Part shown: one piece after another, positions 331-64,000 of the stretch
Layout of the letters: each line of letters begins with the position of its first letter
How positions within the stretch are numbered: position 1 is the stretch's first letter
Origin: Chiloscyllium plagiosum
Lineage: Eukaryota
NCBI RefSeq assembly: GCF_004010195.1
Contig: NC_057718.1
Location: forward strand, 57,303,023 to 57,367,022
Direction: 5' to 3'
DNA length: 64,000 bases
Made by a program: the position numbers and the translations under genes
Notes under the pieces: model-generated
Told to the model about the DNA's origin: nothing
Seen by the model: the letters and a program-made list of their open reading frames with translations, nothing else
The model's database searches: none

Positions 331-871
331 GGGGAGAACATGATGACTGGAGATCAGAGTCAAGAGTGTGGTTATTTATCTGTCAGTCCACAAGCCTCAT
401 TCCTGATGAAGGGCTTATGTCCGAAATGTTGATTCTCCTGCTCCTTGGATGTTGTCTGATCTGTTGTGCTTTTCCAGCACCACACTCTCGATTCTGATCT
501 ACAGCATCTGCAGTCCTCACCTTCTCCTAGTTGATTTCAACCTGGCTGCGAAGTCTCTTCCAAGGATGCCTATCTTGAAGAAGTTCTCCTACTCTCTCTC
601 TACAAGGATGCGAGTGAGTCTCTCTGTCACTGCACCTCCCTCACCTCCTTCCCCCCAAACCCTCGGTCATCTCCTCTGCCCTGAACCTCTTCAGCCACGT
701 CCTAAATCAGACTCACTATCATAACCACACCTCCTTCCTCAATGCCTGCCTACGGAACCGACTGATCCCATATGGACTCCATTCCTGATGAAGGGCTTAT
801 ACCCAAAAAGTTGATTCTCCTGCTCCTTGGATGCTGCCTGATGTACTGTGCTTTTCCAGCACCTCACACAA
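331..871 (+). mobile_element. Penelope-like (Neptune-type) mini-element: short inverted pLTR stub, pLTR, about 250 bp internal sequence, second pLTR
   Basis: Two direct copies of attcctgatgaagggcttat...gattctcctgctccttggatg (399-527 and 781-868); flanked by caaaaa(c/t)ttaat at 319-330 and 872-883. Confidence 0.75.
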
Positions 872-1467
872 CAAAAATTTAATAGTGCACGCATTCCATA
901 AAAACAAGAGCAAACACTAATTCAAATCCCAAAAATGAAAATTTCAAAATTGTAGGTGCCAAAATTGCAACATACTACATACTTTTCTAGGAATTTTGAA
1001 GCTTTGAGCCTCAGATTTTCATTCTATATATACCATTAATAACTGGCAGTGTACACAAAGTTTGCCAGCTATAATAACTTGAGTTTCCCTTGAGTAAGTG
1101 ACAGTATTTTGAAAATTAGGATTGGGGCAAGAGGAAGATGACAGGCAAAAGTGCTAGTATTAGCAAGGGATTTCACACTGGTGAGTTAGATAATCACAGC
1201 TTTGAAGCATGCAAAATGATGCATGTCTGGATCAAATTTTAAGATACTCGGAGGAGCCGTCATTTGTGTCACTAATAACTGTCGTCAAACAGCAAGGTCT
1301 TTTAAAATTAAAAGAACGTTTAATGGGGATAATATTGATAAGTTAATGAGGCCCTTAGTCTTTTGAGTGGCATTAGGTTAAATTTAATGTTGTTTTCTAT
1401 AAGATTTGATTGCTGCATTTTTGTAGTGGCCTCTCCCCATGCCTCTCATTCCCTGTCTCACCACTTG

Positions 1468-1690
1468 GGAGAAAGCGAGGACTGCAGATGCTGGAGATCA
1501 TAATTGAAAAGTGTGGCGCTAGAAAAGCACATCAGGTCAGACAGCATCCAAGGAGCAGGTGAGTTGATGCTTTGGGCATAAGCTCTTCAGCAGGGATGTG
1601 ACAAGCGCTAATGCCCAAAACATCGACTCTCCTGCTCCTTGGATGCTGCCTGACCTGCCATGCGTTTCCAGTGCCACACTTTTCGATCCT
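1468..1690. mobile_element. Fold-back (inverted pLTR) PLE mini-element, decayed
   Basis: Left arm ...aaaagcacatcaggtcagacagcatccaaggagcagg is the reverse complement of the right arm cctgctccttggatgctgcctgacctg...; TSD tctcac(c/t)acttg at 1456-1467 and 1691-1702. Confidence 0.8.
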
Positions 1691-2732
1691 TCTCACTACT
1701 TGCCCCTCTTAGATTTGTGCTCCCTTTCAAGATCCAGGTAAGATTCAAAGCTGTAGAATTCCCAGCTGGGCATGTATAGTCCATGTTTTTAAAACAAAAA
1801 ATTCAAAGTTGATCCTGTCTCAATGCTCTTCTTCTGAATCCTTACTAACAGCAAGTAGGAGCATTTGAAAAAAATGGATTGTAAACCCTCCCGCTCAGCA
1901 CTTCTAAAGTTTTAGGATTCAAACCTCCGCAACACTGGAGCTTTGCCTCCAGAACAGATAACCAGGAAGGAATTGGCAAGTGTGAAAACCACCGAGTGGA
2001 AGATTTAGAAAGAAGATGGGTTGGGGTAAGAGGGAATGGTATGTAGCAACCAGGTGGATAAGGCAAGTTCAGGAAACAGGATTTTCTACAAACAGAAGAT
2101 ATTGTAGCAAGAACTTTCATTTTTCCTCAATGCTTTCAAAATTTTTAAAAAGGTATTCCATTTGCCAGTACAGCTGTGTGAAATATTTCAATACAAGATG
2201 GTATAATGTTTTAATATTTATTTTTTCTACAAGTAAGAATCTACAGAATATAGAGTTTTAACAGTGAATCTCAATTTTAACTGAGGACTTTTATTGCATT
2301 GATAATTATGTGGAACCATCCTTCAATGCAAAGCATAGGAAATTCTGCCATGGAGGCTATATAAATCCTGTGTATACTAATTCACTTTCTGCTGTCAAAC
2401 TAATAATTTGGTGGTTTGATTATATTGCTAGTCATTTACAGTTATCTTTATGTTGGAAGTAACGCATTTGTATGTGGTTTTATGGTGATGAAAAGTGTCC
2501 TTGAAATTACACCCATGAGGGTGGGAATGATGAAATAGAAAATGATGCAAGTTCACCATCTATCAAATCACTGGATGTTTTTAACATGAGCATTTCTCAC
2601 CCAGGATTTTTATTAAGAGGACAGTAAATTTTCAAGGTATACCACAATAGACTATTGTGACAGCATAATCCAAGTCTGATAGCTAAATGCAATAACAACA
2701 GTCTGAATAGGGATGCAGATTGTCACAAGCTG

Positions 2733-10356: not shown

Positions 10357-10643
10357 TTTTTAAAAATTCATTAACAGGATGAGGGTGTCACTGGCTAGGC
10401 CAGCATTTATTGCCCATCCATAATTGCCCAGAGGGCAGTTAAGAGTCAACCACAAGATGTGTAGTTTCCTTCCCTCAAGGGCATTAGAAAACTAGATTTT
10501 TTTTCAACAATTGACAATAGTTTCACAGTCATCATTGCTGCACTGGCAACTATAATTGTAATGCTGCTGCAAGGAAATCTTACCCTCAGGTGCATATATC
10601 AAAGCCATAAACTGAACCAGACTATATCTCTGGGCTCTTACTG

Positions 10644-10870
10644 AGGTAAAAACAATGACTGCAGATGCTGGAAACCAGATTCTGGATCAGTGGTGCTGGA
10701 AGAGCACAGCAATTCAGGCAGCATCCGAGGACAGGCAAAATCGACGTTTCGGGCTAAAGCCCTTCATCAGGAATAAAACCTGATGAAGGGCTTTTGCCCG
10801 AAACATCGATTTTGCTTGTCCTCGGATGCTGCCTGAATTGCTGTGCTCTTCCAGCACCACTGATCCAGAA
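10644..10870. mobile_element. Fold-back PLE mini-element with a hammerhead motif in each arm
   Basis: 10681-10771 is near-perfectly complementary to 10779-10870 with a loop of only a few nt. Confidence 0.9.
10739..10774 (-). ncRNA. Minimal type I hammerhead ribozyme, family A, intact core
   Basis: AUUC CUGAUGA A GGGC UUUA GCCC GAAAC GUC/GAUU. Confidence 0.8.
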
Positions 10871-12260: not shown

Positions 12261-12575
12261 GGGTAATATGTGTTTTGGCTGAATGACAATCTCTAAACCT
12301 ATTGCTGTACTCTTGCCATTTTTGCAACAAAATACCTCTGTGAGCGAGCATTTTCAACATTCATTTACATGAAAAATAACAGGAGGGAGAAATTGTCAGT
12401 GGAACAAAATCTGTGGATATGGCTCTCTCATCAAATCCTCCCCAGATCAAAAATTCTGCACATTGACAGGCCCAGGTTTCCCACTAACTCAGTGAAGAAG
12501 GCATACAAGATATTTGTGCTGAAAATGTGTTGCTGGAAAAGCGCAGCAGGTCAGGCAGCATCCAAGGAACAGAAG

Positions 12576-12611
12576 AATCGACGTTTCGGGCATAAGCCCT
12601 TCTTCAGGAAT
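12576..12611 (-). ncRNA. Minimal type I hammerhead ribozyme, family A, intact core
   Basis: AUUC CUGAAGA A GGGC UUAU GCCC GAAAC GUC/GAUU. Confidence 0.8.
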
Positions 12612-12807
12612 GAGGAAAGTGTGTCCAGCAGGCTAAGATAAAAGGTAGGGAAGAGGGACTTGGGGGAGGGGCGTTGGAAATGCGATAGGTGGAAGGAGGT
12701 CGAGGTGAGGAAGAAGATTGCAGGTTAGGAAGGTGGTGCTGAGTATGAAGGATTTGATTGAGAGAAGGTGGGGGGAGGGGAAATGAGGAAACTGGAGAAA
12801 TCTGAGT

Positions 12808-13615
12808 NNNNNNNNNNNNNNNNNNNNNNNNNNNNNNNNNNNNNNNNNNNNNNNNNNNNNNNNNNNNNNNNNNNNNNNNNNNNNNNNNNNNNNNNNNNNN
12901 NNNNNNNNNNNNNNNNNNNNNNNNNNNNNNNNNNNNNNNNNNNNNNNNNNNNNNNNNNNNNNNNNNNNNNNNNNNNNNNNNNNNNNNNNNNNNNNNNNNN
13001 NNNNNNNNNNNNNNNNNNNNNNNNNNNNNNNNNNNNNNNNNNNNNNNNNNNNNNNNNNNNNNNNNNNNNNNNNNNNNNNNNNNNNNNNNNNNNNNNNNNN
13101 NNNNNNNNNNNNNNNNNNNNNNNNNNNNNNNNNNNNNNNNNNNNNNNNNNNNNNNNNNNNNNNNNNNNNNNNNNNNNNNNNNNNNNNNNNNNNNNNNNNN
13201 NNNNNNNNNNNNNNNNNNNNNNNNNNNNNNNNNNNNNNNNNNNNNNNNNNNNNNNNNNNNNNNNNNNNNNNNNNNNNNNNNNNNNNNNNNNNNNNNNNNN
13301 NNNNNNNNNNNNNNNNNNNNNNNNNNNNNNNNNNNNNNNNNNNNNNNNNNNNNNNNNNNNNNNNNNNNNNNNNNNNNNNNNNNNNNNNNNNNNNNNNNNN
13401 NNNNNNNNNNNNNNNNNNNNNNNNNNNNNNNNNNNNNNNNNNNNNNNNNNNNNNNNNNNNNNNNNNNNNNNNNNNNNNNNNNNNNNNNNNNNNNNNNNNN
13501 NNNNNNNNNNNNNNNNNNNNNNNNNNNNNNNNNNNNNNNNNNNNNNNNNNNNNNNNNNNNNNNNNNNNNNNNNNNNNNNNNNNNNNNNNNNNNNNNNNNN
13601 NNNNNNNNNNNNNNN
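12808..13615. other. Assembly gap (808 N)
   Basis: Run of N. Confidence 1.
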
Positions 13616-14057
13616 CCAGACCATAGCAACACGATGGTTGGAGGAAGAGCGTCTCATCTTCCACCTAGGAACCCTCCAACCACAAGAGATGAACTCAGAT
13701 TTCTCCAGTTTCCTCATTTCTCCTCCCCCCACCTTGTCTCAGTCAAATCCCTCGAACTCAGCACCGCCTTCCTAACCTGCAATTTTCTTCCTGACCTCTC
13801 CGCCCCCATCCCACTCCGGCCTATCAACCTCACCTTGACCTCCTTCCACCTATCGCATTTCCAATGCCCCTTCCCCAAGTCCCTCCTCCCTACCTTTTAT
13901 CTTAGCCTGCTGGACACACTTTCCTCATTCCTGAAGAAGGGCTTATGCCTGAAACATCGATTCTCCTGTTCCTTGGATGCTGCCTGACCTGCTGCGCTTT
14001 TCCAGCAACACATTTTCAGCTCTGATCTCCAGCATCTGCAGTCCTTACTTTCTCCTC

Positions 14058-14335
14058 CATACAGGATATTTGCCTTCATTAGCAAGGGTATAGAATATAG
14101 GAACAAAGAAGTCTTATTACAAATTTATAAACATGGGCTTGGCCAGAGATGGAATATTGTGTACAGTTCTGGTCGCCATGCTATCAGAAGGATGAAGAGG
14201 GTACAAGGGAGATTCACCAAGTGCTGGGATGAATAGTCTCAGTTATAAAGAAAGACTAAATAGGCTGGGTTTGTTTTCTTTGAAGCAAAGGATGCTGAGG
14301 GGTTATCTGAATAAGGTTTACAAAATTATGAGAAA
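14058..14335 (+). mobile_element. CR1 RT C-terminal fragment
   Basis: AFISKGIEYRNKEVLLQIYK...EYCVQFWSP...LSYKERLNRLGLFSL. Confidence 0.8.
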
Positions 14336-23003: not shown

Positions 23004-23826
23004 GCAAACAATGACTGCAGATACTGGAAACCAGATTCTGGATTAGTGGTGCTGGAAGAGCACAGCAGTTCAGGCAGCACCCGAGGAGCAGAAACAAAAA
23101 AAAAGAAAAAAAAAAAAGAAAAATCAATGTTTTGGGCAAAAGCCCTTCATCAAGAATGAGGCTGGGAGCTTCAGGGGTGGAGAGATAAATGGGAGGGGGG
23201 AGGTGAGGCTGGTGAGAAAGTAGCTGAGTGTGCAGTAGGTGGATGGAGATGGGGGTGAAGATGATAGCTTGGAGAGGAGAGTGGAGTGGATAGGTGGGAA
23301 GTAAAATTGACAGGTGGGACAGGTAATGAGGACGGTGCTGAGCTGGAAGGTTGGAACTGGGGTAAGGTGGGGGGAGGGGAAATGAGGAAACTGGTAAAGT
23401 CCACATTGATGACATGGGGTTGAAGAGTCCCAAGGCAAAAGAGGAGGCGTTCTTCCTCCAGACGTCAGGTGGTGAGGGAGTGGCGGTGGAGGCAGCCCAG
23501 GACCTGCATGTCCTTGGCAGAGTGGGAGGGGGAGTTGAAATGTTTGGCCACAGGGCAGTGGGGTTGATTGGTGCAGGTGTCCCAGAGTTGTTCCCTAAAC
23601 GGTCTGCAAGAAGGCGTCCAGCCTCCCCAATATAGACGAGACCGCATCTGGAGCAACGGATACAATAAATGACATTGGTGTAAGAAAAAGGAAGAAACAG
23701 AAGGCTTGGAGGCCCAGTTCATGGCGGATGGAAGTGTAGAGGGGCTGGATGTCCATGGTGAAGATGAGGCATTGGGGGCCGGGGAAACAGAAGTCTTGGA
23801 GGAAGTGGAGGGCGTGAGTGGTGTCA
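23004..23826 (-). mobile_element. Neptune-type PLE, internally deleted (short RT piece fused to GIY-YIG endonuclease and pLTR)
   Basis: RT piece (FTMDIQPLYTSIRHE), YCIRCSRCGLVYIGE, PVAKHFNSPSHSAKDMQVLG, decayed hammerhead at about 23122-23157. Confidence 0.85.
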
Positions 23827-24082
23827 ACTTAGTAACGGTCACTAATGGAGCATAGATACCTATTTACTAATTACATGTATTATATGCATGATGGATGGTT
23901 TCACTGGTCATAGGTCCACTGTTAGCATTAATGCTCTGGGAAATGGAAGTGGAAATTCTTATTTCTTTGTTAAGAGGTCACCTTTTGCAACAGAGTTGCC
24001 AAAAACACAAACAAACAAATACACACAGTTTAGAGGCTCAGCTCTACTTCGTATGAAGTATGACTTGCTTTGATGTATTTAC

Positions 24083-24328: not shown

Positions 24329-24635
24329 CTTTGAAAGGAAGAGGAACAAAAAAAGTTTTGTTTGATTAAAATAATAGCCTAAAGACAGTAAAAAAGCTCT
24401 TGTAGTTTTGCTGTACAAAATCGAATAGCTGAGCCATACAGACTGAGATACATTCCTGGCTGACCTCCCATCTTCAAGCCTCTTTAAAGTTACATTATGC
24501 ACAGGTGAGACAGGGTCACAATATCCCTCCTTTTTTTTTTTAAAACCCTTCTTGGTCAGTCACGACACCTTTGCTTTCTAAAACTTGTGCTCTTTTAGCA
24601 TGTCGTGGTAATGTCACTGGACTAGTTATCCAGAA

Positions 24636-24869
24636 GGAGAAAGTGAGGGCTGCAGATGCTGGAGACCAGAGCTGAAAATGTGTTGCTGGAAAAGCGCAGC
24701 AGGTCAGGCAGCATCCAAGGAACAGGAGAATCAGCATTTCGGGCATAAGCCCTTTTTCAGGAATGATGAAGGAATGATTCCTGAAGAAGGGCTTATGCCC
24801 GAAACGTCGATTCTCCTGTTCCTTGGATGCTGCCTGACCTGCTGTGCTTTTCCAGCAACACATTTTCAG
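24636..24869. mobile_element. Fold-back PLE mini-element with perfect 14 bp TSD
   Basis: About 95 bp inverted arms; ctagttatccagaa at 24622-24635 and 24870-24883. Confidence 0.92.
24777..24812 (+). ncRNA. Minimal type I hammerhead ribozyme, family A, intact core
   Basis: AUUC CUGAAGA A GGGC UUAU GCCC GAAAC GUC/GAUU. Confidence 0.8.
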
Positions 24870-24956
24870 CTAGTTATCCAGAACCCCAGGCTATTGATGA
24901 AATTTGAATTCAATGAAAGTCTATTATAAAACAGTAGGCCTAATGCAAATAACACT

Positions 24957-25742
24957 TGGAGAAAGTGAGGACTGCAGATGCTGGAGATCAGAGCTGAAAA
25001 TTGTGTTGCTGGAAAAGCGCAGGTCAGGCAGCATCCAAGGAGCAGGAGAATCAACGTTTCGGGTATAAGCCCTTCTTCAGGAATGATGAAGGTGTGCCAA
25101 GCAGGCTAAGATAAAAGGTAGGGAGGCCCCAAGGGATCCTTCCATATCCGTCACAAATTCACCTGCACCTCCACATACATCATTTACTGCATCCGCTGCA
25201 CCCGATGTGGCCTCCTCTACATTGGGGAGACAGGCCGCCTACTTGCGGAATGTTTCAGAGAACATCTCTGGGACACCCAGACCAACCAACCAACCGCCCC
25301 GTGGCTGAACACTAACTCCCCCTCCCACTCTGCCAAGGACATGCAGGTCCTTGGCCTCCTCCATCGCCAGACCATGGCAACACGATCCTGGAGGAAGAGC
25401 GCCTCATCTTCCGTCTAAAAACCCTCCAACCACAAGGGATGAATGCAGATTTCTCCAGCTTCCTCATTTCCTCTCCCCCCACCTTATCTCAGTCCCAACC
25501 CTCGGACTCAGCACCACCTTCTTGACCAGCAATCTTCTTCCCGACCTCTCCGCCCACACCCCCTCTCCGGCCTATCACCCTCACCTTAACCTCCTTCACC
25601 TATCGCATTCCCAACGCCCGTCCCTACCTTCTATCTTAGCCTGCTTGGCACACTTTCCTCATTATGCCCGAAACGTCGATTCTCCTTCTCCTTGGATAAT
25701 GTCTGACCTGCTGCACTTTTTCAGCAACACATTTTTCAGCTC
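24957..25742 (+). mobile_element. 5'-truncated Neptune-type PLE: inverted pLTR arm + GIY-YIG endonuclease + pLTR
   Basis: From 25125: GPKGSFHIRHKFTCTSTYIIYCIRCTRCGLLYIGETGRLLAECFREH; TSD tgcaaataac at 24944-24953 and 25743-25752. Confidence 0.9.
25049..25084 (-). ncRNA. Hammerhead motif, family A, core intact with GUU site and shortened stem II
   Basis: AUUC CUGAAGA A GGG CUUAUA CCC GAAAC GUU/GAUU. Confidence 0.65.
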
Positions 25743-27431
25743 TGCAAATAACCACGGTCAATTATCATAAAAACCTACCTGGTCATTAATACCCTTTAAG
25801 GAAATCTGCCATCCTTACCTAGTATGTATGGTCTACCAATGACTCTGGGTGCACAGCAAAGTTAACTCCTAACGGTCCAATAATGCTGAACAAGTCACTA
25901 ATGCCCACATCCCATGAATTTTATTTTTTCTTTTAAAAAGGTCTATAACAGCAATCTGCACATGCTCAAGGCAGACTGTTCTATGTAAATAATGGTCAGT
26001 ATGCTTGAAAGCATTTTTTTTTTCACTGCTCATGCTCATCCTTTTCAACATTGCACCCTAGAGATATACCATTTGTGTCCAGCTGAGCAGAATTTGGCAA
26101 GATGAATGCCCTCCAAGTAACTTTCCAGTTTTACCTGCCATCACCACTGCCAATGAAGAGCAAGGACTCGGGTGAAAGAACCATATCTAACTCGTCTGAC
26201 CAATGTATAAAGTATTTGTAAACAAAAGTCCTTAAGGTGCTTCAACCTCAGAAGTTGATCAGCTGCTTGGAAGATTCACAGACCTTGGCTGCAGAAAACT
26301 TGAAGGTCTTAGATTGTCTCTATAAAGATGATCCTATGCATTAGTTGCATTAGTTGTTGCAAAAAGCTATCAAAAGCAACTGTTCTATTACATGTGTCAC
26401 TAATACCAAACTGTTTCACTAGGTATTTGGAAGGTTTCCATCTGATTGACACAGACAGAGAAATATTACTAATGTCCAGTGCTTTCTCCTTTGCTATTGT
26501 TCACTGGGAAATCTGTGGATATCCACCTTGGATTCTGTCCCTTTCACTAGTTTTATGGCTGTTTCTCCTGCAATGGGGGAGGAAAAGAACTGAGTGGCCT
26601 ATGATCACCTGGTAAGATTGAAAAATGAGCAGTGAAATTTCATAAGGGGAACAGTGAGTCGCTGCTCTGTATGGATAGATGGGATGTGAGGAAGTGCAGA
26701 CAAAACGGAGATGTGGTAGGCGGTAAACAGGTGTGAGGTGCAAGACTTCAGTAAGTTAGAGGCAGGTGGATGCAGTCACATGCACAAACAACTTGCCGGT
26801 GATTGTGTACTGAATTCATCAACTAGGTGATTAAAGTGTGGAAGAATAAAGATGGCTAGGCTTGGTAAGGATGGCAGATTTCACTCCATAAAAAGGACAA
26901 CAGTAAGCACTGTTTCTTTTTGTGAGAACTAATAATAGTTTCATAGTCTGTATGGTTAATTTTATGTTTATTAATAAATTTTGCCAGTTGCTATAGGAAG
27001 ATTTGAATCTACACCCCAGAGCAGAACCCTAGGCCTCCAGATTATTTATCCATGATGTTACACTATGCCTAAAGTTTCCCTTCATATGCTACAGATAGTC
27101 ATATGGAATTTACTTTAGGGTCTCTCCCTCAATACAGGTCAATACTTTAACTGTCTCGAAGTTAATAGCAGGGTTATCATGTCCGGAACTTTCCGATGAT
27201 CAATCCTTAGTTGCTCCTTTCATCTACCTGATGTATCTCAGCAAGTGTCATAGAGAGTAGATTCAGCTTTCTATGTATATTTGTAAAATTTGCTGTAACC
27301 TTTTCACCCTCAAGATCCTCCAACTGTCTGATGGCCTGCCTTATATTATAGACAAAGATTTCCTTCAGCTGAATTACAAAACTGCTATTGCTCACGGCGT
27401 CTGCCACAACCTGTTTCTCTCCTTGGCTATT

Positions 27432-30399: not shown

Positions 30400-32663
30400 T
30401 TTTTAATGTATATATTTATTGACAATATTTTTCCTTTTTGTTAACAAAAAACACAAACAGAAAGAAAGAAAAAGTTTTAAAAGTACAGAAAAGTAAGAAT
30501 GATGTCACACTATTATGTTGTAGTACTATAATGTTAACAATAAAATGCCTACTATTCTCCAAATTGTAGTTGACTCTTATTTTACTCAACTTAATTCAAA
30601 TGAGCACTAGCTCAAATTAAATAAGATAACATTTAATTTAATTAAATTACAATCCACCAAAATTAAGTTACACTACATTGTACTATATTACATTACTCCA
30701 CTCGCCGCACTACCATCAAGGCTCCCACCCACGGGAGCAACAGTGATTATACCTGTATTTACTACCTCCCCATCGAGGTCCCTGGACTGCCATACATGGC
30801 CCTCGTGACTACACAAAGGCTCTTATCAATATCGCTGACAAATCCATTTCTATATAATTTAAAAAGGGCCACCACGTCTTATAAAATTTCTCTGTTCCAT
30901 GGTGCACCATACTTATCAGGTAGTCCTGAGGGATGTGCTCCATCGCAAGTCTGTGCCACCGTACAAGACCTGGCGGCTTTTCTGATATCCAATTCATTAG
31001 GATGTCTTTCCTCGCACAGTGCATCAGAATGTTGAATAATCTCATCCCGTGCTCATCCAAAGAGGGAAGATTCGGTAGTCCTAAGAGGAGGGACACTGGA
31101 TTCCCCCTTTCAAAACTTCCACTCCCAAAATCCCCTCCGGTTCATTCCCTATGGCCCCCCCCCGCCATGGGTCTTGTGACCAGAGGCAATGCGTAAGGGT
31201 GCCAACACTGTTTTTACATTTGGGGCATTTCAGGGAAGGTCTTTTCTTAAACTTTGCTAGTCACTCAGGTGCCATATAAGCCCTATGGAAGATCATCAAT
31301 TGCATCGCTTGTGCCCGATTGCATATTGAAATCTTCTTTACATTCCCCATATGTCCTCCCACGTTTCTGATGAGATTTCTTCCCCTAACTCCTGACTCCA
31401 AATCTCACGGAATCTCTCCATATACACCCAGGCATTCCCTCTTTGCAGATGATATAAAGGTACCAACAGAGAGAGCGCCCCCAGTTCGGAGCAGTCTACG
31501 TTCTAAACCTGATTTGTAGGGCTGGTTTTCTTCTGTGTATAATCCCTAACTTGGAAATATCAGAAAAAGGACCTTATTAGGGATTTCGTACTTCTGACCT
31601 AATTGGCTAAAAGACATCCAAGTCCTCTCCGGAGAAAGTGAGGACTGCAGATGCTGGAGATCAGAGCTTAAAAATGTGTTGCTGGAAAAGCGCAGGAATC
31701 CTGAAGAAGGGCTTATGCCCAAAACGTCCATTCTCCTTCTCCTTTGCTGCCTGACCTGCTGTGCTTTTCCAGCAACACATTTTTAAGATCAAGTCCTCTC
31801 CCTCAAACAGATCTCCCAGACAGGAGATATCTTTACCCTCCCATGTTCTAAAGCCAGAGTTCATTGACCCCGGCTTGAATCCTGGAGCTCCCCCTAATGG
31901 GGTAAAGGGCACAGTCTTGAGCGAATTGCCCTCACCCTGCCACATTATCCTCCATGCTTTTACTGTATTTATAATAATTGGACTTTCACAGTGCTCAATT
32001 ACTGATCTCATCTTATCCACGAAAAGCAAGTTTATGAGGGGACACTTCACCTGCTGGGCCTCCACATCTAACCGTATCTACTTCGGGTCATTGTACACCC
32101 AATCACCTACATATGACAACAGAACGCCTATTTGATATTCCTTCAGATCTGGGAGATCCACCCCACCCATATCCTGCCGAAGCTGCAACTTGGTAAATTT
32201 AATTAAGGGGTGCCTATGGCACCAAATAAACAATCCAAGCCATTCCGCAAACCTCCGCAGCACCTCTGAGTAATAATAACGGGAGCATCCTCATAGGATA
32301 TAGCAAGCAAGGGAGAATATTCATCTTAATCAAGGCTATATGGCCAAGCCGTGATATAGGTAGTCCCTCCCATCGCTGCAAGTCCTGCTTTACCCTCTCA
32401 AACAGCTGTACATAATTAGGTCCATACAGCTGCTGGAAGCAAGGAGTAAGGAATAGTCCGAGATAGAGAAAACCTGTGATCATCGAAAGGGAGTTCCATT
32501 CCAACCTGCAATTTAGACACCTCCACCAACACCCCCACAGGCATCACTTCCGATTTTGTGAAATGTATCCTCTACCCCGGAAAGCTACCAAATAATTTAA
32601 TTTTTTGTATTAACCGGGGTATGGACTTTTCCAGGTTAGCTAGAAACAGAAGGATAACCTGCA
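30400..32663 (-). mobile_element. L1/Tx1-like LINE ORF2, 3' part and 3' UTR (decayed)
   Basis: FLYLGLFLT...DLQRWEGLPISRLGHIALIKMNILPCLLY; GGVDLPD; TEKFYKTWWPF; AATAAA near 30415. Confidence 0.85.
31631..31789. mobile_element. Short fold-back PLE mini-element nested in the L1-like LINE
   Basis: Inverted pLTR stub plus pLTR with G12-mutant hammerhead; TSD caagtcctctcc at 31619-31630 and 31790-31801. Confidence 0.88.
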
Positions 32664-34780: not shown

Positions 34781-34976
34781 NNNNNNNNNNNNNNNNNNNN
34801 NNNNNNNNNNNNNNNNNNNNNNNNNNNNNNNNNNNNNNNNNNNNNNNNNNNNNNNNNNNNNNNNNNNNNNNNNNNNNNNNNNNNNNNNNNNNNNNNNNNN
34901 NNNNNNNNNNNNNNNNNNNNNNNNNNNNNNNNNNNNNNNNNNNNNNNNNNNNNNNNNNNNNNNNNNNNNNNNNNNN
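34781..34976. other. Assembly gap (196 N)
   Basis: Run of N. Confidence 1.
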
Positions 34977-42417: not shown

Positions 42418-42721
42418 ATGAAATATATTAATAAGACAGTAAAAGACTTCATGAGGATGCAGATAGATAAATGACAGCTTTGGTTCAGCAACAGAGTTGT
42501 CATCTTGGAACCAGAAGCCTGTACATGAGTTCTAGGATGATATTTCAATTCAGATCTGAGGAAGTATTTTGCTGCCGGACAAGATAGTATACTGATATCT
42601 CAAAGGCATATAAAATATTGCATGTCATTCTTTGAAAAGCAACAAGGATGTTTTCTTCAGTCACATAATTAATATTTATCCCTGAATCATAATCACTCCA
42701 TACCCCTGGTGTTAAAGCTCA

Positions 42722-44833
42722 TTGTTGTTGTGGTTCTGTTCGCCGAGCTAGGAATTTGTGTTGCAGACGTTTTGTCTCCTGTCTCGGTGACATCCTCAGT
42801 ACTTGGGAGCCTCCTGTGAAGCGCTTCTGTGATGTTTCCTCTGGCATTTGTAGTGGTTTGTCTCTTATAAATGCCAGAGGAAACATCACAGAAGCGCTTC
42901 ACAGGAGGCTCCCAAGCACTGAGGATGTCACCTAGACAGGGGACGAAACGTCTGCAACACAAATTCCCAGCTCGGTGAACAGAACCACAATGAGCACCCG
43001 AGCTACAAATCTTCTCACAAACTTTGAAGACCTATGGACAAGAGACGCTAAGACAAGCCAGGAAATGGGAATCCTGTGCCAACCGCCTAAGCGCCACATA
43101 CGAACAACTTCGGTTCCTGCACGAATGCAGAAAGAATCGAATCCTTCCACCATGTGTCAGATACAGACCACCAGTCAGCAACCCACAAGCCAGAGAGACA
43201 GCCAGACACAACAGGTTCAGGATGACCCAGGTAATGATTACAAACGCACACACCAGACTACACAAATACAGACAAGAAATTGCGCGCCAAAAGTCGTTAA
43301 TTTCAAAAACCACAAATCAATCAAGAATGGACCCGGGCCATAGAACAGGCTGTCACCATAGGACAGACCAGGACCACACACTGGAAAAAAACGGCACTAA
43401 AAGAAAAAAATGGCCAAACTAACACACAACAGAGAGGACACCACAACTCATACCTGGGTTAGAAACCTCTCCCACAGACAGCTCACAGACACAGAAGGAA
43501 CAATACTGGCCAAGGGACTCAACTATAACCACAGGGATGCCAAGACAGCAGACTTCCAAGCAGCACTAGAATGCACACTCAAACAATGGACTGACAGAAG
43601 AGACACAACAAATAGTGAGACAAAGTATCGTACCCCTGATAACAAGGAAAAGACAAACACAATCTCAATACCAAGGAGAGGGAAGCACTAAAAACACTAA
43701 GAAATAAGAACATAATCATACTACCAGCAAAGGCAGAATGACGGTCATCCTGGACAAAGCAGAGTACATCGAGAAAGCACAACAACTACTTGAAGATACC
43801 AACACCTACCAAAAGAGAGAGTTTGACCCCACCCCACAGCTCACCAATAGGATAAACAACACACTGAGGAACCTGCAAAAAAAAAACGGACAGAAAACCA
43901 GGTTTGACCTACAGAGAATGAAACCTGAAAGCAACACCACCCCCAGATTCTATGGACTACCTAAAGTGAACAAACCAGACATCCCACTCAGACCCATCGT
44001 ATCGCTACCAGGGACATCATCACACAAACTTGCTAAAGACCTATAACAGAAACTGAAACACCTGATCAGCGGATCCAGACACTCTATACAGACAACACTG
44101 GAATTCTTGGACATCAGAAATATACATTAGACAAGGAAGAAACTATGGTCTCATTCGATGTAACGGCACTGTTCACCTCTATCGACAAAACCCTAGCCAG
44201 AGAAACAATAGCCAACCTGCTGGACGTACAGAACAGACAAGACGGGGAACCTATCAACAAAGCCTGCATACTCAAACTACTGGACCTGTGCCTCACAACA
44301 CACTTTACATTCAACAACCAAATATATGAACAAATCAACGGCACACCCATGGGCTCACCCATCTCTGGACTCATAGCAGAAGCTGTAATGCAAAGATTAG
44401 AACAAACAGTCTTACCGCAAATTCAACCCAAACTCTGGGTCAGATATATAGATGATACCTTTGTAATAATTAAAAACACAAATAGAAAACACACACCGGA
44501 TCATCAAGCCACACTCACAGGAATCCGATTCACTAGAGAAGAAGAAAAGGACAACCAACTCCCATTCCTAGACGTGATGGTACAGAGAACACCGAACGGA
44601 GAATTCACCACAAAGGTATACAGGAAAGCCACACACACACACACAGACCAAGTCCTGAACAACAAACCACTATAAATGTCAGAGGAAACATCACAGAAGT
44701 GCTTCACAGGAGGCTCCCAAGCACTGAGGATGTCACCTAGACAGGGGACAAAACGTCTGCAACACAAATTCCCAGCTCGACGAACAGAATCACAACGAGC
44801 ACCTGAGCTACAAATCTTCTCACAAACTTTGAA
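42722..44833 (+). mobile_element. Penelope/Poseidon-type PLE: inverted pLTR, pLTR, frameshifted RT ORF, pLTR; endonuclease deleted
   Basis: PRFYGLPKVNKPDIPLRPIVS; SFDVTALFTSI; GTPMGSPISG; WVRYIDDTF; LPFLDV; pLTRs at about 42865-43028 and 44663-44833, inverted copy 42722-42860. Confidence 0.93.
42916..42955 (+). ncRNA. Minimal type I hammerhead ribozyme, family B, intact core
   Basis: GCA CUGAGGA U GUC-A-CCU AGAC AGG-G-GAC GAAAC GUC/UGC. Confidence 0.82.
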
Positions 44834-44917
44834 GCTCATTGTTGTTTGTGGGACTACATTTTTAGCACATTAGCTGCTGTTTTTCCCCACATTGCAACAA
44901 TGGCTATCCAAAGTTAA

Positions 44918-45072
44918 AAAAATCAGACAACACTAGGTTATAGTCCAACAGGTTTAATTGGAAGCACTAGGTTTTGGAGCACCACTCCTTCATCAGGTGG
45001 TTGTGGAGTACACAATTGTAAGGCACAGAATTTATAGCAAAGATTTACAGTGTGATGCAACTGAAATTATTG
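44918..45072 (-). mobile_element. PLE-like terminal repeat, family C, with inactive hammerhead at 44965-44999
   Basis: Homologous to 48145-48295; CAC CUGAUGA A GGAG..CUCC AAAA CC UA GUG. Confidence 0.7.
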
Positions 45073-48139: not shown

Positions 48140-48615
48140 AAGGTAAAAGTCACACAACACCTGGTTATAGTCCAACGGATTTATTTGGAAGCACTAGCTT
48201 TCGGAGTGCCGCTCCTTCATCAGGTGGTTGTGGAGTATAAGATCGTAAGACACAGAATTTATAGCAAAAGTTTACAGTGATGTAACTGAAATTCTATGTT
48301 GAAAAAGACCTGGATTATTTGTTAAATCTCTCATCTGTTAGAATGACCATGTTGGTTTCAGTTCTTGCATATGTAAATCACAAAACCTTTAAAGTTACAT
48401 TCTCAAGTGAACTTTAACAATTGGAGTCATGTCAGCCCAGATTAATGCATTGTAGGTGTGAGGTGCCCTGTGTGAGACTGTGTCACAATGGTCAGACTGA
48501 TTCTAAACTTTAAAAAAAAAACGGATTTACAGAATCTTACATAGATTCATGCAATTTTTGAGCAAGGTCAAATGTAATTCTGCAAGTACAAATTCACCCC
48601 ACAAACTTGTATGTT
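48140..48615 (-). mobile_element. PLE-like 3' region/terminal repeat, family C
   Basis: Ends (minus strand) hammerhead-gtgcttccaAATAAA..gttggactataaccaggtgttgtgtga; second copy at 44918-45072; no ORF evidence, so class is inferred. Confidence 0.65.
48192..48226 (-). ncRNA. Minimal type I hammerhead ribozyme, family C, intact core
   Basis: CAC CUGAUGA A GGAG CGGCA CUCC GAAAG CUA/GUG; palindromic AGCU stem III. Confidence 0.82.
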
Positions 48616-57226: not shown

Positions 57227-57624
57227 CTAGAAGTGAAAATTAAACAAAGTATTATTTTTTCAAATAAAAGGGTCACATTATACATCAATTTAAGATGGAC
57301 ACTATTTAAGAAAGGCTAAAGAGGAAAATCAGAATTACAGACCAATTAGCTTAACATCTGTGGTGGGGAAACTGCTAGAGTCTATAGTCCAAGATGGGGT
57401 AACTGAACACCATGAAAAATTTCAGGTTATCAGGGAGAGCAAGCATGGAATCATGACTAGTAGGGTCATGCCTGAAAAACCTCATTGAATCTTTTGGAGG
57501 TGACTAAGATAGTGGACAGGAAAATATCTATGGATGTTGTTTATATGCACTTCCAAAAGGCATTTGATACAAGTTCCACACATGAGACTGTGAACTAAGG
57601 TAGAGTCAAAGAGTGCGATGCTGA

Positions 57625-57925
57625 ACCCAAGGGGGCTGAAATAAATGGGAGGGACGTGGGGGGGGGTGAGGAAGGAGGTAAGTGGGAATGCGATAGGTAG
57701 ATGAAGGTGGTGTGGGTTGATGGTGATAGATCAGAGCAGAGGGTGGAGCGGATAGGTGGGAAGGAAGATGGACAGGTAGGACAGTTCAAGAGGGTGGTGC
57801 TGAGTTGGAGGGTTGTATCTGGGATAAGGTGGAAGTGGGGAAATGGAGAAACTGGTGAAATCAACATTGATCCCATGTGGTTTGAGGGTCCCAAGGCAGA
57901 ATATGAGGGCATTCTTCCTCCAGGT
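57625..57925 (-). mobile_element. Neptune-type PLE 3' fragment
   Basis: Homologous to 23170-23460 (purine-rich on plus strand; end of GIY-YIG ORF). Confidence 0.75.
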
Positions 57926-58027
57926 TAACTAAAAGGTAGAAGCCCACAGAATTGAGGGCAAGTTACAGACATGGCTGGGAAATTGGTTGAGTGGCAGGTG
58001 ATATAAAGGAGGGATCAGGGGTAGGTA

Positions 58028-58262
58028 GTGAGGATTGGAGTGGTGCTGGGAAAGCACAGCAGGTCAGGCAGCATCAGAGGAGCAGGAAAACTGGTGTTTC
58101 AGGCAAAAGCCCTGCAGCAGGAATGAGGTAATTCCCGATGAAGGGCTTTTGCACGAAACATTGATTTTCCTGCTCCTCGAATGCTGCCTGACCTGCTATG
58201 CTTTTCCAGCACCACTCTAATCTAGACTCTAATTTCCAGCAACTGCAGTATTCACTTTCGCC
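58028..58262. mobile_element. Fold-back PLE mini-element, both hammerheads decayed
   Basis: Inverted arms 58037-58125 and 58130-58218; TSD aggggtaggta at 58017-58027 and 58266-58276. Confidence 0.85.
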
Positions 58263-60114
58263 ATAAGGGGTAGGTACTCAATTTGGCAGGATGTGACCAG
58301 TGATGCCCCACAAGATCAGTGTTAAGACCTCAATTTCACATTATTTATTAAAGATTTGGATAAATGTGTCCGGTGTCCAAATTTGCTGATGACACAAAGT
58401 TAGGCAGCATTGTCAACAGTGTAGCAGATAGCATAAAATTACAAAGGCTTATTGATAGACGAAGGAATGGGCAGAACTATGGCAGCTGGAGTTCAATGTT
58501 AGCCAGAGTGAGGTAATCCATTTTGAACTGTAAAAAGATTGATCAGGGTACTTTCTAGATGGCATGAAGTTAAATACAGTGAATATCCAAAGAATCTTGG
58601 GGGTTCATGTGCATAGATCTTTAAAATGTCACAAACAGGTATAGAAAATAATCAAGAGAATGCTGACCATTACTTCTTGAGGACTGGATACAAAGATGCA
58701 AAAATTATGCTGCAGCAATATAAAATCTTGGTTAGACTCTACAGATCTGGGAACCGCACATTAAGTATACAGGCTTTGGACAAGTACAACATAGGTTTAC
58801 AAGAATGATACCTGAAGTTCAGTGGTTAAGAGGAGAGATAACACAAATTAGGCCTGTTTTCTGTTGAATTTAGAAAGTCAAGCGGTGATCTGATTGAAGT
58901 CTTCAATATATTAACAGGAAAAGACAGTAGATAAATATATACTATTTCCACTAGTTGGGGATTCTAGAACAGGGGGTCACAGTCTGAGAATTGGAGCCAA
59001 ACCATTCAGGCGAGATGTAAGGAAGCACTTCTACATACAAAGCATAGTAAATATTTGGAATGCTCTTCCACAAATGGAAATGGACACTTGGATCAGTTGT
59101 TAATTTTAAATATAAGATACTAATTTCCTTTTTAAAGGAATATTAATGCAACATTCCATCGGGTTAACATAACAAAGCAAGGCCATCCAAGGTCTCATAT
59201 TATGGTGGATCCCATGCCACAGATGTGTGTCAGCCAAGGGAAATTGCAGGTGATCCTCCTTCCGGATGTTAATCTCTTGATTAGGCACTGAGGGCTTTTG
59301 ATTGAGGATTCCTCCTTATCCACCCCCCCCTCCTGGGCATGGTAAACTATCTTTGGATTAATATCCTGTGGTACAATAAAGCCGTTAAGTGACTATTAGT
59401 TGCCTACTTAAGGGCTTTAATTACAAGTGGGGTAAGAAGGACATCCACAAGCAATCTGTCTTGGATTTATTCAGGGTGGAGGCTGCTAGGAAGCAACAAT
59501 GGGGTCCCTACTGCCACAAAGTACATCACAGTGCAGAGCAATAAATTCTGCCATGCCAAGCTACTTCACTTTGTAGAACCAATAGACATGTATTGTATTT
59601 CAAAGGAATTAAATTTAAAACTAATCCAAAGAAATGATTTTCCAGTAAGCAAATAATTATGGAACAGACACATTCAAATGCCAATCAGTTAGGTTTTTCA
59701 GAAAACCACATTTTGGATCTATCAACAATCCAACACATTACAGATGGCAAGCATAGCAAATGCTTAAGGAACAGATGACTCTGGACCCATAATTCCCAAA
59801 GCCGTTTACCACGAGGTTTACCTCAAATGTGTTTTTGGGATCTGGACATCAATGGCAAGCCATCATTTATTGCATATACCTAACTTCCCTCAAGTAGTGT
59901 TGGTGATCCAACTACAATTGAATGGCCAGCTAGGCTATTACAGAGGGCAGTTAAGAGTCAACCACATTGATCAGGTGTCATACGTATGGCAAGGATGGCA
60001 AACACACTCTCGAACAGATAGTTGTGAACCAGATAGAGTTTTATGACAATCTGGGAGGTTCAAACTCATTATTCATGCAACTTACCATATATTTGGAAAT
60101 CTATGGATACAATT

Positions 60115-63100: not shown

Positions 63101-64000
63101 TCCCTATGGGAGACTGATTAGCAAGGTTAGATCTCATGGAATACAGGGAGAACTAGCCATGTGGATACAGAACTGACTGAAAGATAGAAGACAGAGGGTG
63201 GTGGCGGAGGGTTGTTTTTCAGATTGGAGGCCTGTGACCAGTAGAGTGCCAGGAGGATCGGTGCTAAGTTCTCTACTTTTTGTCATTTACATAAATGATT
63301 TGAATGCAAGCATAAGAGGTACAGTTAGTAAGTTTGCAGATGACACCAAAAAAATTGGAGGTGTAGTGGACAGCGAAGAGGATTACCTCGATTACAACAG
63401 GATCTTAACCAGATGGGCCAATGAGCTGAGAAGTGGCAGATGGAATTTAATTCAGATAAATGCAAGGTGCTTCATTTTGGGAAAGCAAATCTTAGCAGGA
63501 CTTATACACTTAATGGTAAGGTTCTAGGGAGTTTGCTGAACAAAGAGACCTTGGAGTGCAGATTCATAGCTTCTTGAAAGTGGAGTCGCAGGTAGATAGG
63601 ATAATGAAGACGGCGTTTGGTATGCTTTCTTTTATTGGTCAGAGTATTGAGTACAGGGGTTGGGAGGTCATGTTGCGGCTGTACAGGACATTGCTTAGGC
63701 CACTGTTGGAATATTGCGTGCAATTCTGGTCTTCTTCCTATTGGAAAGATGTTGTCAAACTTGAAACAGTTCAGAAAAGATGTACAAGGATGTTGCCAGG
63801 GTTGGAGGATCTGAGCTTTGGGAGAGGCTGAACAGGTTGGTGCTGTTTTCCCTGGAGCGTCGGAGGTTGAGGGGTGACCTTATAGAGGTTTACAAAATTG
63901 AGGGGCATGGATAGGGTAAATTGGCAAAGTCTTTTCCCTGGGGTCGGGGAGTCCAGAACTAGAGGTTTAGGGTCAGAGAGGAAAGATATAAAAGAGACCT
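60115..64000 (+). mobile_element. Near full-length CR1 LINE, same subfamily as 32664-36612, inactivated; runs off the window
   Basis: ORF1 IVLGDSVVQGTDRCFCG...HIGTNDI; ORF2 TETWL, DFSKAFNKVPY, FADDTK; many stops. Confidence 0.95.

Follow-up and report, generated by a model that had tools for sequence, protein, structure and literature searches.

Inserts of Penelope-like elements (PLEs) have been described in which an inverted pLTR lies adjacent to the element, a 31-bp tail is present on one end and TSDs of 8-10 bp enclose the whole (PMC3846280), and the combination of an inverted pLTR, a one-sided tail and a TSD is presented as typical of PLEs in the legend to Fig. 2 of PMC8557442 and in PMC8969392. 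The origin of these inverted structures is stated to be unresolved (PMC8557442, PMC3846280). A CX2-5CxxC linker marks Neptune and Nematis among the PLEs (PMC8557442), and the minimal PLE hammerhead is thought to need a same-strand dimer (PMC4209133). The purified protein of an anole PLE cuts and extends both strands and starts reverse transcription at two sites bounding the tail; it is predicted to be a dimer, and hammerhead cleavage is not required (PMC11167929).

Here we describe short two-armed inserts ("minis") in a 64,000-nucleotide stretch of Chiloscyllium plagiosum DNA (NC_057718.1), referred to as a whole as the window. The minis are very probably dead-on-arrival insertions of Neptune-type Penelope-like retrotransposons, both halves of which were cut down to the pLTR. 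Our overall explanation, to which we assign a probability of roughly 0.6, combines this origin with two-ended priming on element RNA. Within about 230 bp, a mini retains its two ends together with the TSD and the junction. The minis can be regarded as natural records of PLE integration.

The focal insert and related inserts in the window

The focal insert (24636-24869; Table 1) consists of two pLTR arms placed head to head with their 3' ends outward, as judged by comparison with one of the copies of the element's 3' end in the window. Between the arms, complementarity is 94% (24670-24767 against 24774-24871). Measured from hammerhead C3, the tail arm is 125 nt and the other arm 89 nt long, a difference of 36 nt, or 34-36 nt once a 2-nt microhomology between the end of the tail-less arm and the TSD is allowed for. 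Both the asymmetric palindrome with one arm about 35 nt short and the perfect TSD of 14 bp (14/14 exact), as given in the original prediction, were therefore reproduced. The insert had also been said to hold two hammerhead pLTRs; two arms are present and the core in the right arm is intact, but the core in the left arm is broken. The DNA fold of the insert has an energy of -115.7 kcal/mol (z -24), and none of 200 shuffles was as stable. The filler at the junction might be explained by slipped re-copying of adjacent arm sequence.

Table 1. Features of the PLE-derived inserts (window coordinates; inserts are named in the text by approximate start).
Feature	Position	Strand	Remarks
Left TSD copy, focal insert	24622-24635	.	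14 bp, exact match to 24870-24883
Right TSD copy, focal insert	24870-24883	.	repeat comparison
Tail-bearing pLTR arm, focal	24636-24772	-	5' limit 12 nt upstream of hammerhead C3; core broken (CTGAAAA)
Junction filler, focal, 4 nt	24773-24776	.	read from sequence
Tail-less pLTR arm, focal	24777-24869	+	begins 4 nt upstream of C3
Minimal type I hammerhead motif, intact	24781-24808	+	CTGAAGA, 4-bp stem II, GAAA, GTC; descriptor scan
Longer two-armed insert (24957)	24944-25752	.	10-bp TSD; decayed GIY-YIG coding sequence
24957 insert, short tail arm	24958-25126	-	
24957 insert, long tail-less arm with GIY-YIG coding	about 25125-25742	+	
Two-armed insert in CR1-like LINE fragment (12517)	12502-14072	.	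15-bp TSD, 1 mismatch; both arms long
Mini (31631)	31619-31801	.	12-bp TSD; focal subfamily; tail arm only ~65 nt, without hammerhead
Older mini, different subfamily (1468)	1456-1702	.	12-bp TSD, 1 mismatch; both hammerhead cores decayed
Older mini in CR1-like RT fragment (58028)	58014-58276	.	tail arm is the right one; 14-bp TSD, 1 mismatch
Mini, different subfamily (10644)	10644-10870	.	arms 97% alike, both cores intact, without clean TSD
Insert of a second, unrelated PLE family	42712-44846	+	18-bp TSD, 1 mismatch (17/18); eighth two-armed insert
42712-44846, tail-less inverted pLTR	42727-42861		
Direct partial tandem, first family	395-861	+	pLTR + tail, ORF start, second tail-less pLTR
Single-armed copy	23010-23855	-	RT and GIY-YIG fragments joined over internal deletion; no clear TSD

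Only 60 bp separate the focal insert from 24957, both being inside one older interspersed repeat (24585-25930) that may resemble a shark SINE. Fragments of this repeat occur near 10370-10521, 26860-27075 and 59946-60051, all paralogues in the window of the host repeat around the focal insert are diverged, and its flank depth at 25800-25927 is 40-90x single copy in public contigs. The tail arms of the two inserts, 320 bp apart, have two upstream bases in common that are unlike those of the 12517 copies (24760-24772 and 25080-25092); about 99% of the public-contig depth has the other base at position 25087. Elsewhere, the diagnostic sites of the two arms are not the same. The two common bases might reflect local conversion or descent from a shared source.

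At 88-98% identity, the focal insert and 31631 fall into one group together with 12517 and 24957, and 1468, 10644 and 58028 are mostly 74-89% identical to this group and to each other. By these identities the five minis appear to derive from about four subfamilies, with only the focal insert and 31631 sharing one. Four of the five measure about 225-235 bp. The minis had been proposed to form a size series from a single mechanism; they do look like PLE integration products, but the series mixes about four subfamilies. For the same reason, the argument from differing centres to independent origins is limited to one pair in the window: it holds for the focal insert and 31631, and deeply covered junctions in public contigs (see below) mean that whole-unit copying may apply to some copies. 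Moreover, 31631 had been listed as a pair of hammerhead pLTRs and carries one hammerhead only, its tail arm lacking the motif. The longer inserts were expected to carry GIY-YIG coding sequence, which is true of 24957 (a decayed domain), but in 12517 the visible coding sequence is the endonuclease C-terminus without the GIY-YIG core, and the 12517-14057 insert contains a run of 808 N (12808-13615), which makes its apparent length nominal. This run is one of two assembly gaps in the window (the other is at 34781-34976), and the middle of long inverted inserts is where assemblies tend to fail. A frame at 12297-12490, to the left of the host fragment of 12517, may resemble a decayed DNA-transposase C-terminus.

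TSDs were found at 7/8 two-armed inserts of the two families, and they vary from 10 to 18 bp. Within the first family, the copies agree at 11/12 positions for 1468 (1456-67/1691-1702), 12/12 for 31631 (31619-30/31790-801), 13/14 for 58028 (58014-27/58263-76), 14/15 for 12517 (12502-16/14058-72) and 10/10 for 24957 (24944-53/25743-52). When compared with 1500 random position pairs, the TSD score was reached by none for the focal insert, 31631, 58028 and 12517, by one for 24957 and by four for 1468. At 10644-10870 there is no clean TSD, the best repeat being 6 bp and matched by 110 of the 1500 random pairs. Thus, a TSD of 10-15 bp, anticipated for every listed insert, goes beyond chance in six of seven, with 10644 the exception. 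The lengths and mismatches given earlier for 1468 (12 bp, 1 mismatch), 31631 (12 bp), 12517 (15 bp, 1 mismatch) and 24957 (10 bp) were obtained again, and the 11 bp reported for 58028 proved to be the exact core of a TSD that is 14 bp long with one mismatch. The TSD of 31631 may be 14 bp, with copies differing by one base in length (31611-31630 and 31788-31801), which would put its tail-less end at the same point as that of the focal insert.

The hosts of 12517 and 58028 are CR1-like LINE coding fragments, a family name taken from reading the translations. Counting one TSD copy, the codon spacing at the 12517 site is 42 nt, the same as in both measurable window paralogues (42 and 42), and the W-to-W codon spacing at the 58028 site is 51 nt, as in the paralogue near 63177 (51). 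At both testable sites the paralogous hosts carry the stretch once, as would be expected of true TSDs. The host ORF of 31631, which gave no homologue in a homology search, is presumably LINE-like. A second organism, whose flank is about 97% alike, is represented by public contigs that begin within the right arm of 24957, 26 nt in; this insert is therefore shared with it, and the locus is occupied there as well. To the left of the focal insert, the contigs of either organism end at 24633-24634, short of the focal junction and without bridging the site, probably because the host sequence itself repeats. In the public contigs of the two organisms, therefore, no orthologous empty site was found for the 24957 and focal loci, and the focal locus was uninformative.

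Coding sequence, hammerheads and other copies

The long arm of 24957 reads YCIRCTRCGLLYIGET at 25125-25298. Its match to Pfam GIY-YIG (E 0.0033) is below the curated cut-off, in line with a decayed domain, and its coding sequence is 82% identical to a relative, P0001 (source label: Chiloscyllium punctatum), which has the RT motif YIDD upstream. A CxxC-containing GIY-YIG core is present in 94/152 relatives, the CX2-5CxxC linker in 88 of those 94, and RT precedes EN in all 74 relatives having both. P0001 retains only the CxxC half of the linker, and the linker region is absent from the window copies. The link to a Neptune-type PLE made in the original prediction was upheld as far as the PLE is concerned, the arms being contiguous with GIY-YIG coding sequence; this evidence does not separate Neptune from Nematis.

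A hammerhead descriptor recovered 10 distinct sites in the window, as against 0-1 in five shuffles. The cores at 24781, 10770, 10780, 12607 and 403 are intact and the others broken or decayed. Searching Rfam gave no match at the gathering score, MFE folds of the short hammerhead stretches were not significant, and the core motif had 0 matches in metagenome and viral contigs. As an inverted pair would leave one sense motif locked in a long duplex, cis cleavage by the hammerheads of such pairs seems unlikely. Taken together, a C-terminal GIY-YIG domain with CxxC, a pLTR with a minimal hammerhead, a 30-40 nt tail at one end and a variable TSD point to an EN+ Penelope-like element.

The insert of the second family is made up, in order, of an inverted pLTR, a direct pLTR, a decayed ORF with RT (Pfam RVT_1, E 3e-10) and a 3' pLTR with tail. 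Its arms start about 55 nt upstream of a hammerhead-like core. The arm starts adjoin TATA-like sequence (42727-42870), and the inverted arm includes 9 nt whose sole other occurrence is upstream of the 3' pLTR. Hammerheads with a longer stem II are also carried by a third repeat family, which occurs on the minus strand at 44905-45010, about 60 bp from this insert, and at 48145-48237.

In the direct tandem at 395-861 the tail continues into the ORF start, with 666-779 matching residues 11-48 of relative P0012 (E 2.5e-4), and in the single-armed copy RT and then EN fragments follow in order at 23855-23423. At about 57590-57940, in the same CR1-like host as 58028, there is a single-armed, apparently tail-less first-family copy without the hammerhead region, lying between approximate 15-17 bp repeats.

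Arm limits, junctions and the origin of the inverted inserts

The tail is on exactly one arm in 8/8 two-armed inserts from two unrelated PLE families, for which the probability would be at most 0.5^8 = 0.004 were the ends chosen independently. The minis had been described as variably truncated. This overlooks that 9/10 of their short arms begin at a near-fixed point beside the hammerhead, within 12 nt upstream to about 2 nt downstream of C3; in the five minis, no arm begins at the position of hammerhead cleavage, which is 27 nt downstream of C3. Four minis have two cores, and in these a distance of 3-20 nt separates one C3 from the other. In the focal insert, 1468 and 10644 (3/5 minis), the tail arm extends further upstream. 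In 58028 (by 4-7 nt) and 24957 (by about 450 nt) it is the tail-less arm, as it is in 31631 unless a later deletion trimmed the tail arm. Because the tail-less arms of 24957 and 58028 extend past the tail arms, they cannot have been copied from them, barring a later deletion. Junctions show short microhomology or 2-5 filler bases. The subfamily variant at the tail-less end is common to sister arms in 4/4 young inserts (three variants in total). In the young subfamily, the overall similarity of sister arms does not exceed that of arms from different inserts (ranks 1-8), so there is no sign of arm homogenisation.

Copies of the first family are very numerous, with 167,000-174,000 contigs in each DNA run aligning to 1.9 kb. 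Among the 12 junction rows listed (of 606), 10 link an arm in antisense to one in sense orientation, and the joints are all at different places. Of the rows with filler, the best supported have depths of 214-533 (single copy 10.6-16.9; roughly 13-50x), which suggest that some centres are repeated or multi-copy, although depth in short repeat contigs does not equal copy number and may be inflated by passengers in other repeats or by duplications. Loose ends peak at 24777 (462-526 contigs in each DNA run), but this is where the arm in the reference starts, and the peak was not accepted as proof of a start hot spot. One RNA run, from a polyA single-cell library, gave no pile of starts or ends and says nothing on transcription starts. 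Tail ends joined to pLTR starts as direct tandems (joint 24777-24958) were seen in 24-25 contigs per run for the second organism versus 5 for the first, and apparent tail-to-tail neighbours (joints 24857/61/62-24958) in 16-29 versus 2-5. Tandem pLTR units in public contigs would be retrozyme-like.

From the observed anatomy, TSDs, family link and arm extents, we infer two-ended priming, run-off at the RNA 5' end and end-joining as the mechanism of the inverted minis, at odds slightly better than even. We propose that: the element endonuclease would make staggered nicks in the two target strands, with a spacing of 10-18 bp from which the TSD arises; reverse transcription on element RNA would be primed from both of the 3' ends so exposed, one cDNA starting at the tail end and the other about 35 nt inside; with a pLTR at the transcript 5' end, both cDNAs would reach the end of the RNA just a few bases upstream of the hammerhead, yielding arms of about 130 and 95 nt, while a read-through pLTR preceded by the ORF would let them continue into long arms; and the cDNA ends would be joined via microhomology or a few filler bases, so that the centre would be made anew at each event. 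The hammerheads would be passengers. The bases preceding the hammerhead core may be initiator-like. By analogy, the in vitro chemistry of the anole protein might extend to inverted inserts.

Several observations weigh against this mechanism. The two-armed inserts in the window number no more than 8, and one of them contains an assembly gap; the 3/5 minis with the tail arm further upstream have a centre able to form a small hairpin, as would be predicted by fold-back; single-armed or direct-tandem copies occur too (395-861, 23010, about 57590-57940); the junction rows at depth 214-533 suggest some repeated centres; and the fixed start point by the hammerhead has been shown for one family, the first, which limits the generality of run-off. 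In addition, independent ends would also yield tail/tail and tail-less pairs, so the model has to assume a coupling of one start site per end.

One-sided tails would be accounted for directly by fold-back self-priming, in which the cDNA end hairpins and is copied back, stops about 35 nt short, and has its second end then joined to the target. Fold-back of an antisense RNA has been proposed in PMC3846280 from palindromic junctions. The focal insert and 31631 each have a short hairpin at the centre, the tail arm reaches further upstream in three minis and sister arms have variants in common, all of which agrees with fold-back. However, the tail-less arm of 24957 has about 450 nt missing from the tail arm, which in turn has a private tail, so neither arm can template the other without a later deletion. 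These two arms also differ at two upstream positions, and the tail-less arms of 58028 and 31631 extend further upstream as well. We therefore regard fold-back as possible but unlikely. Counts of arm extents and junctions over one genome could separate it from two-ended priming.

It is more doubtful still that some palindromes, once built by two-ended PLE integration, were re-transcribed and reinserted whole by PLE proteins, as retro-MITEs. The near-fixed size and ends of the minis and the deep filler junctions would fit such unit copying, and if true, it would define a non-autonomous, MITE-shaped retroelement class of hairpin units. But the focal insert and 31631 have different centres within the same subfamily, the listed junction rows all differ, the depths of short contigs might have the other causes given above, and a perfect hairpin of ~95 bp would probably be a poor template. 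Post-insertion collapse, by which longer inverted inserts lost their middle or two inserts landed adjacently, is highly improbable: internal deletions are indeed common in the window (23010, 395-861, 42727 and probably the tail arm of 31631), yet they would not be expected to leave the two arms each with a limit no more than about 14 nt from C3, and both arms, of the same subfamily, are enclosed by one TSD. Finally, short non-coding inserts with inverted arms and a TSD resemble DNA-transposon MITEs, but we give this reading hardly any weight. Instead of symmetric TIRs and a short constant TSD, we found ends differing by a ~35-nt tail, variable centres and TSDs of 10-18 bp; the arms run on into GIY-YIG and RT coding sequence, and single-armed and direct-tandem copies are present. 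That the minis are PLE products rather than MITEs, as first suggested, is thus supported, and similar inserts could be mislabelled as MITEs in repeat libraries.

Comparison with described elements

The architecture of an inverted pLTR, a one-sided tail and a TSD is already published for PLEs. The idea of an inverted pLTR added to a truncated copy agrees with PLE inserts, but it amounts to the published description. In a literature search of main texts, with few subscription papers, we recognised no description of body-less two-arm PLE minis and no twin-priming model for PLEs.

The window inserts are like Pen2a_Av and others (PMC3846280) in having a head-to-head inverted pLTR, a 30-40 nt tail at one end, an enclosing TSD and a palindromic junction, and 42712-44846 follows the Pen2a layout described there part for part. 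Unlike Pen2a_Av, the window units are often two pLTR arms without a body, and their TSDs are 10-18 bp as compared with 8-10 bp in the rotifer examples (PMC3846280). Also, unlike in the EN+ PLE units of the published descriptions considered here, the position next to the hammerhead at which short arms begin is near-fixed. Neptune and Nematis PLEs have a C-terminal GIY-YIG with CxxC in the core (PMC8557442), as do the relatives of the window copies; the window copies themselves are cut downstream of the linker. The minimal hammerheads of metazoan PLE pLTRs (PMC4209133) have the CTGANGA core, the unpaired base before stem II, G-C at 10.1-11.1, GAAA and almost no helix III, all as in the window.

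In vitro, PAc Poseidon uses two RT start sites that bound the tail, and both strands are cut and extended (PMC11167929); it belongs to a different clade, and the portion of that report considered here offers no model for inverted inserts or TSD length. The tail that continues into the ORF start at 395-861 has its counterpart in the anole element (PMC11167929). Non-LTR retrozymes (bioRxiv 10.64898/2026.07.22.740005) are likewise non-coding, hammerhead-bearing and pLTR-related. They are described, however, as direct tandem arrays of at least two units with complete hammerheads, whereas the minis are inverted pairs enclosed by a TSD. With their arms inverted rather than in direct tandem, the minis were not classed as non-LTR retrozymes.
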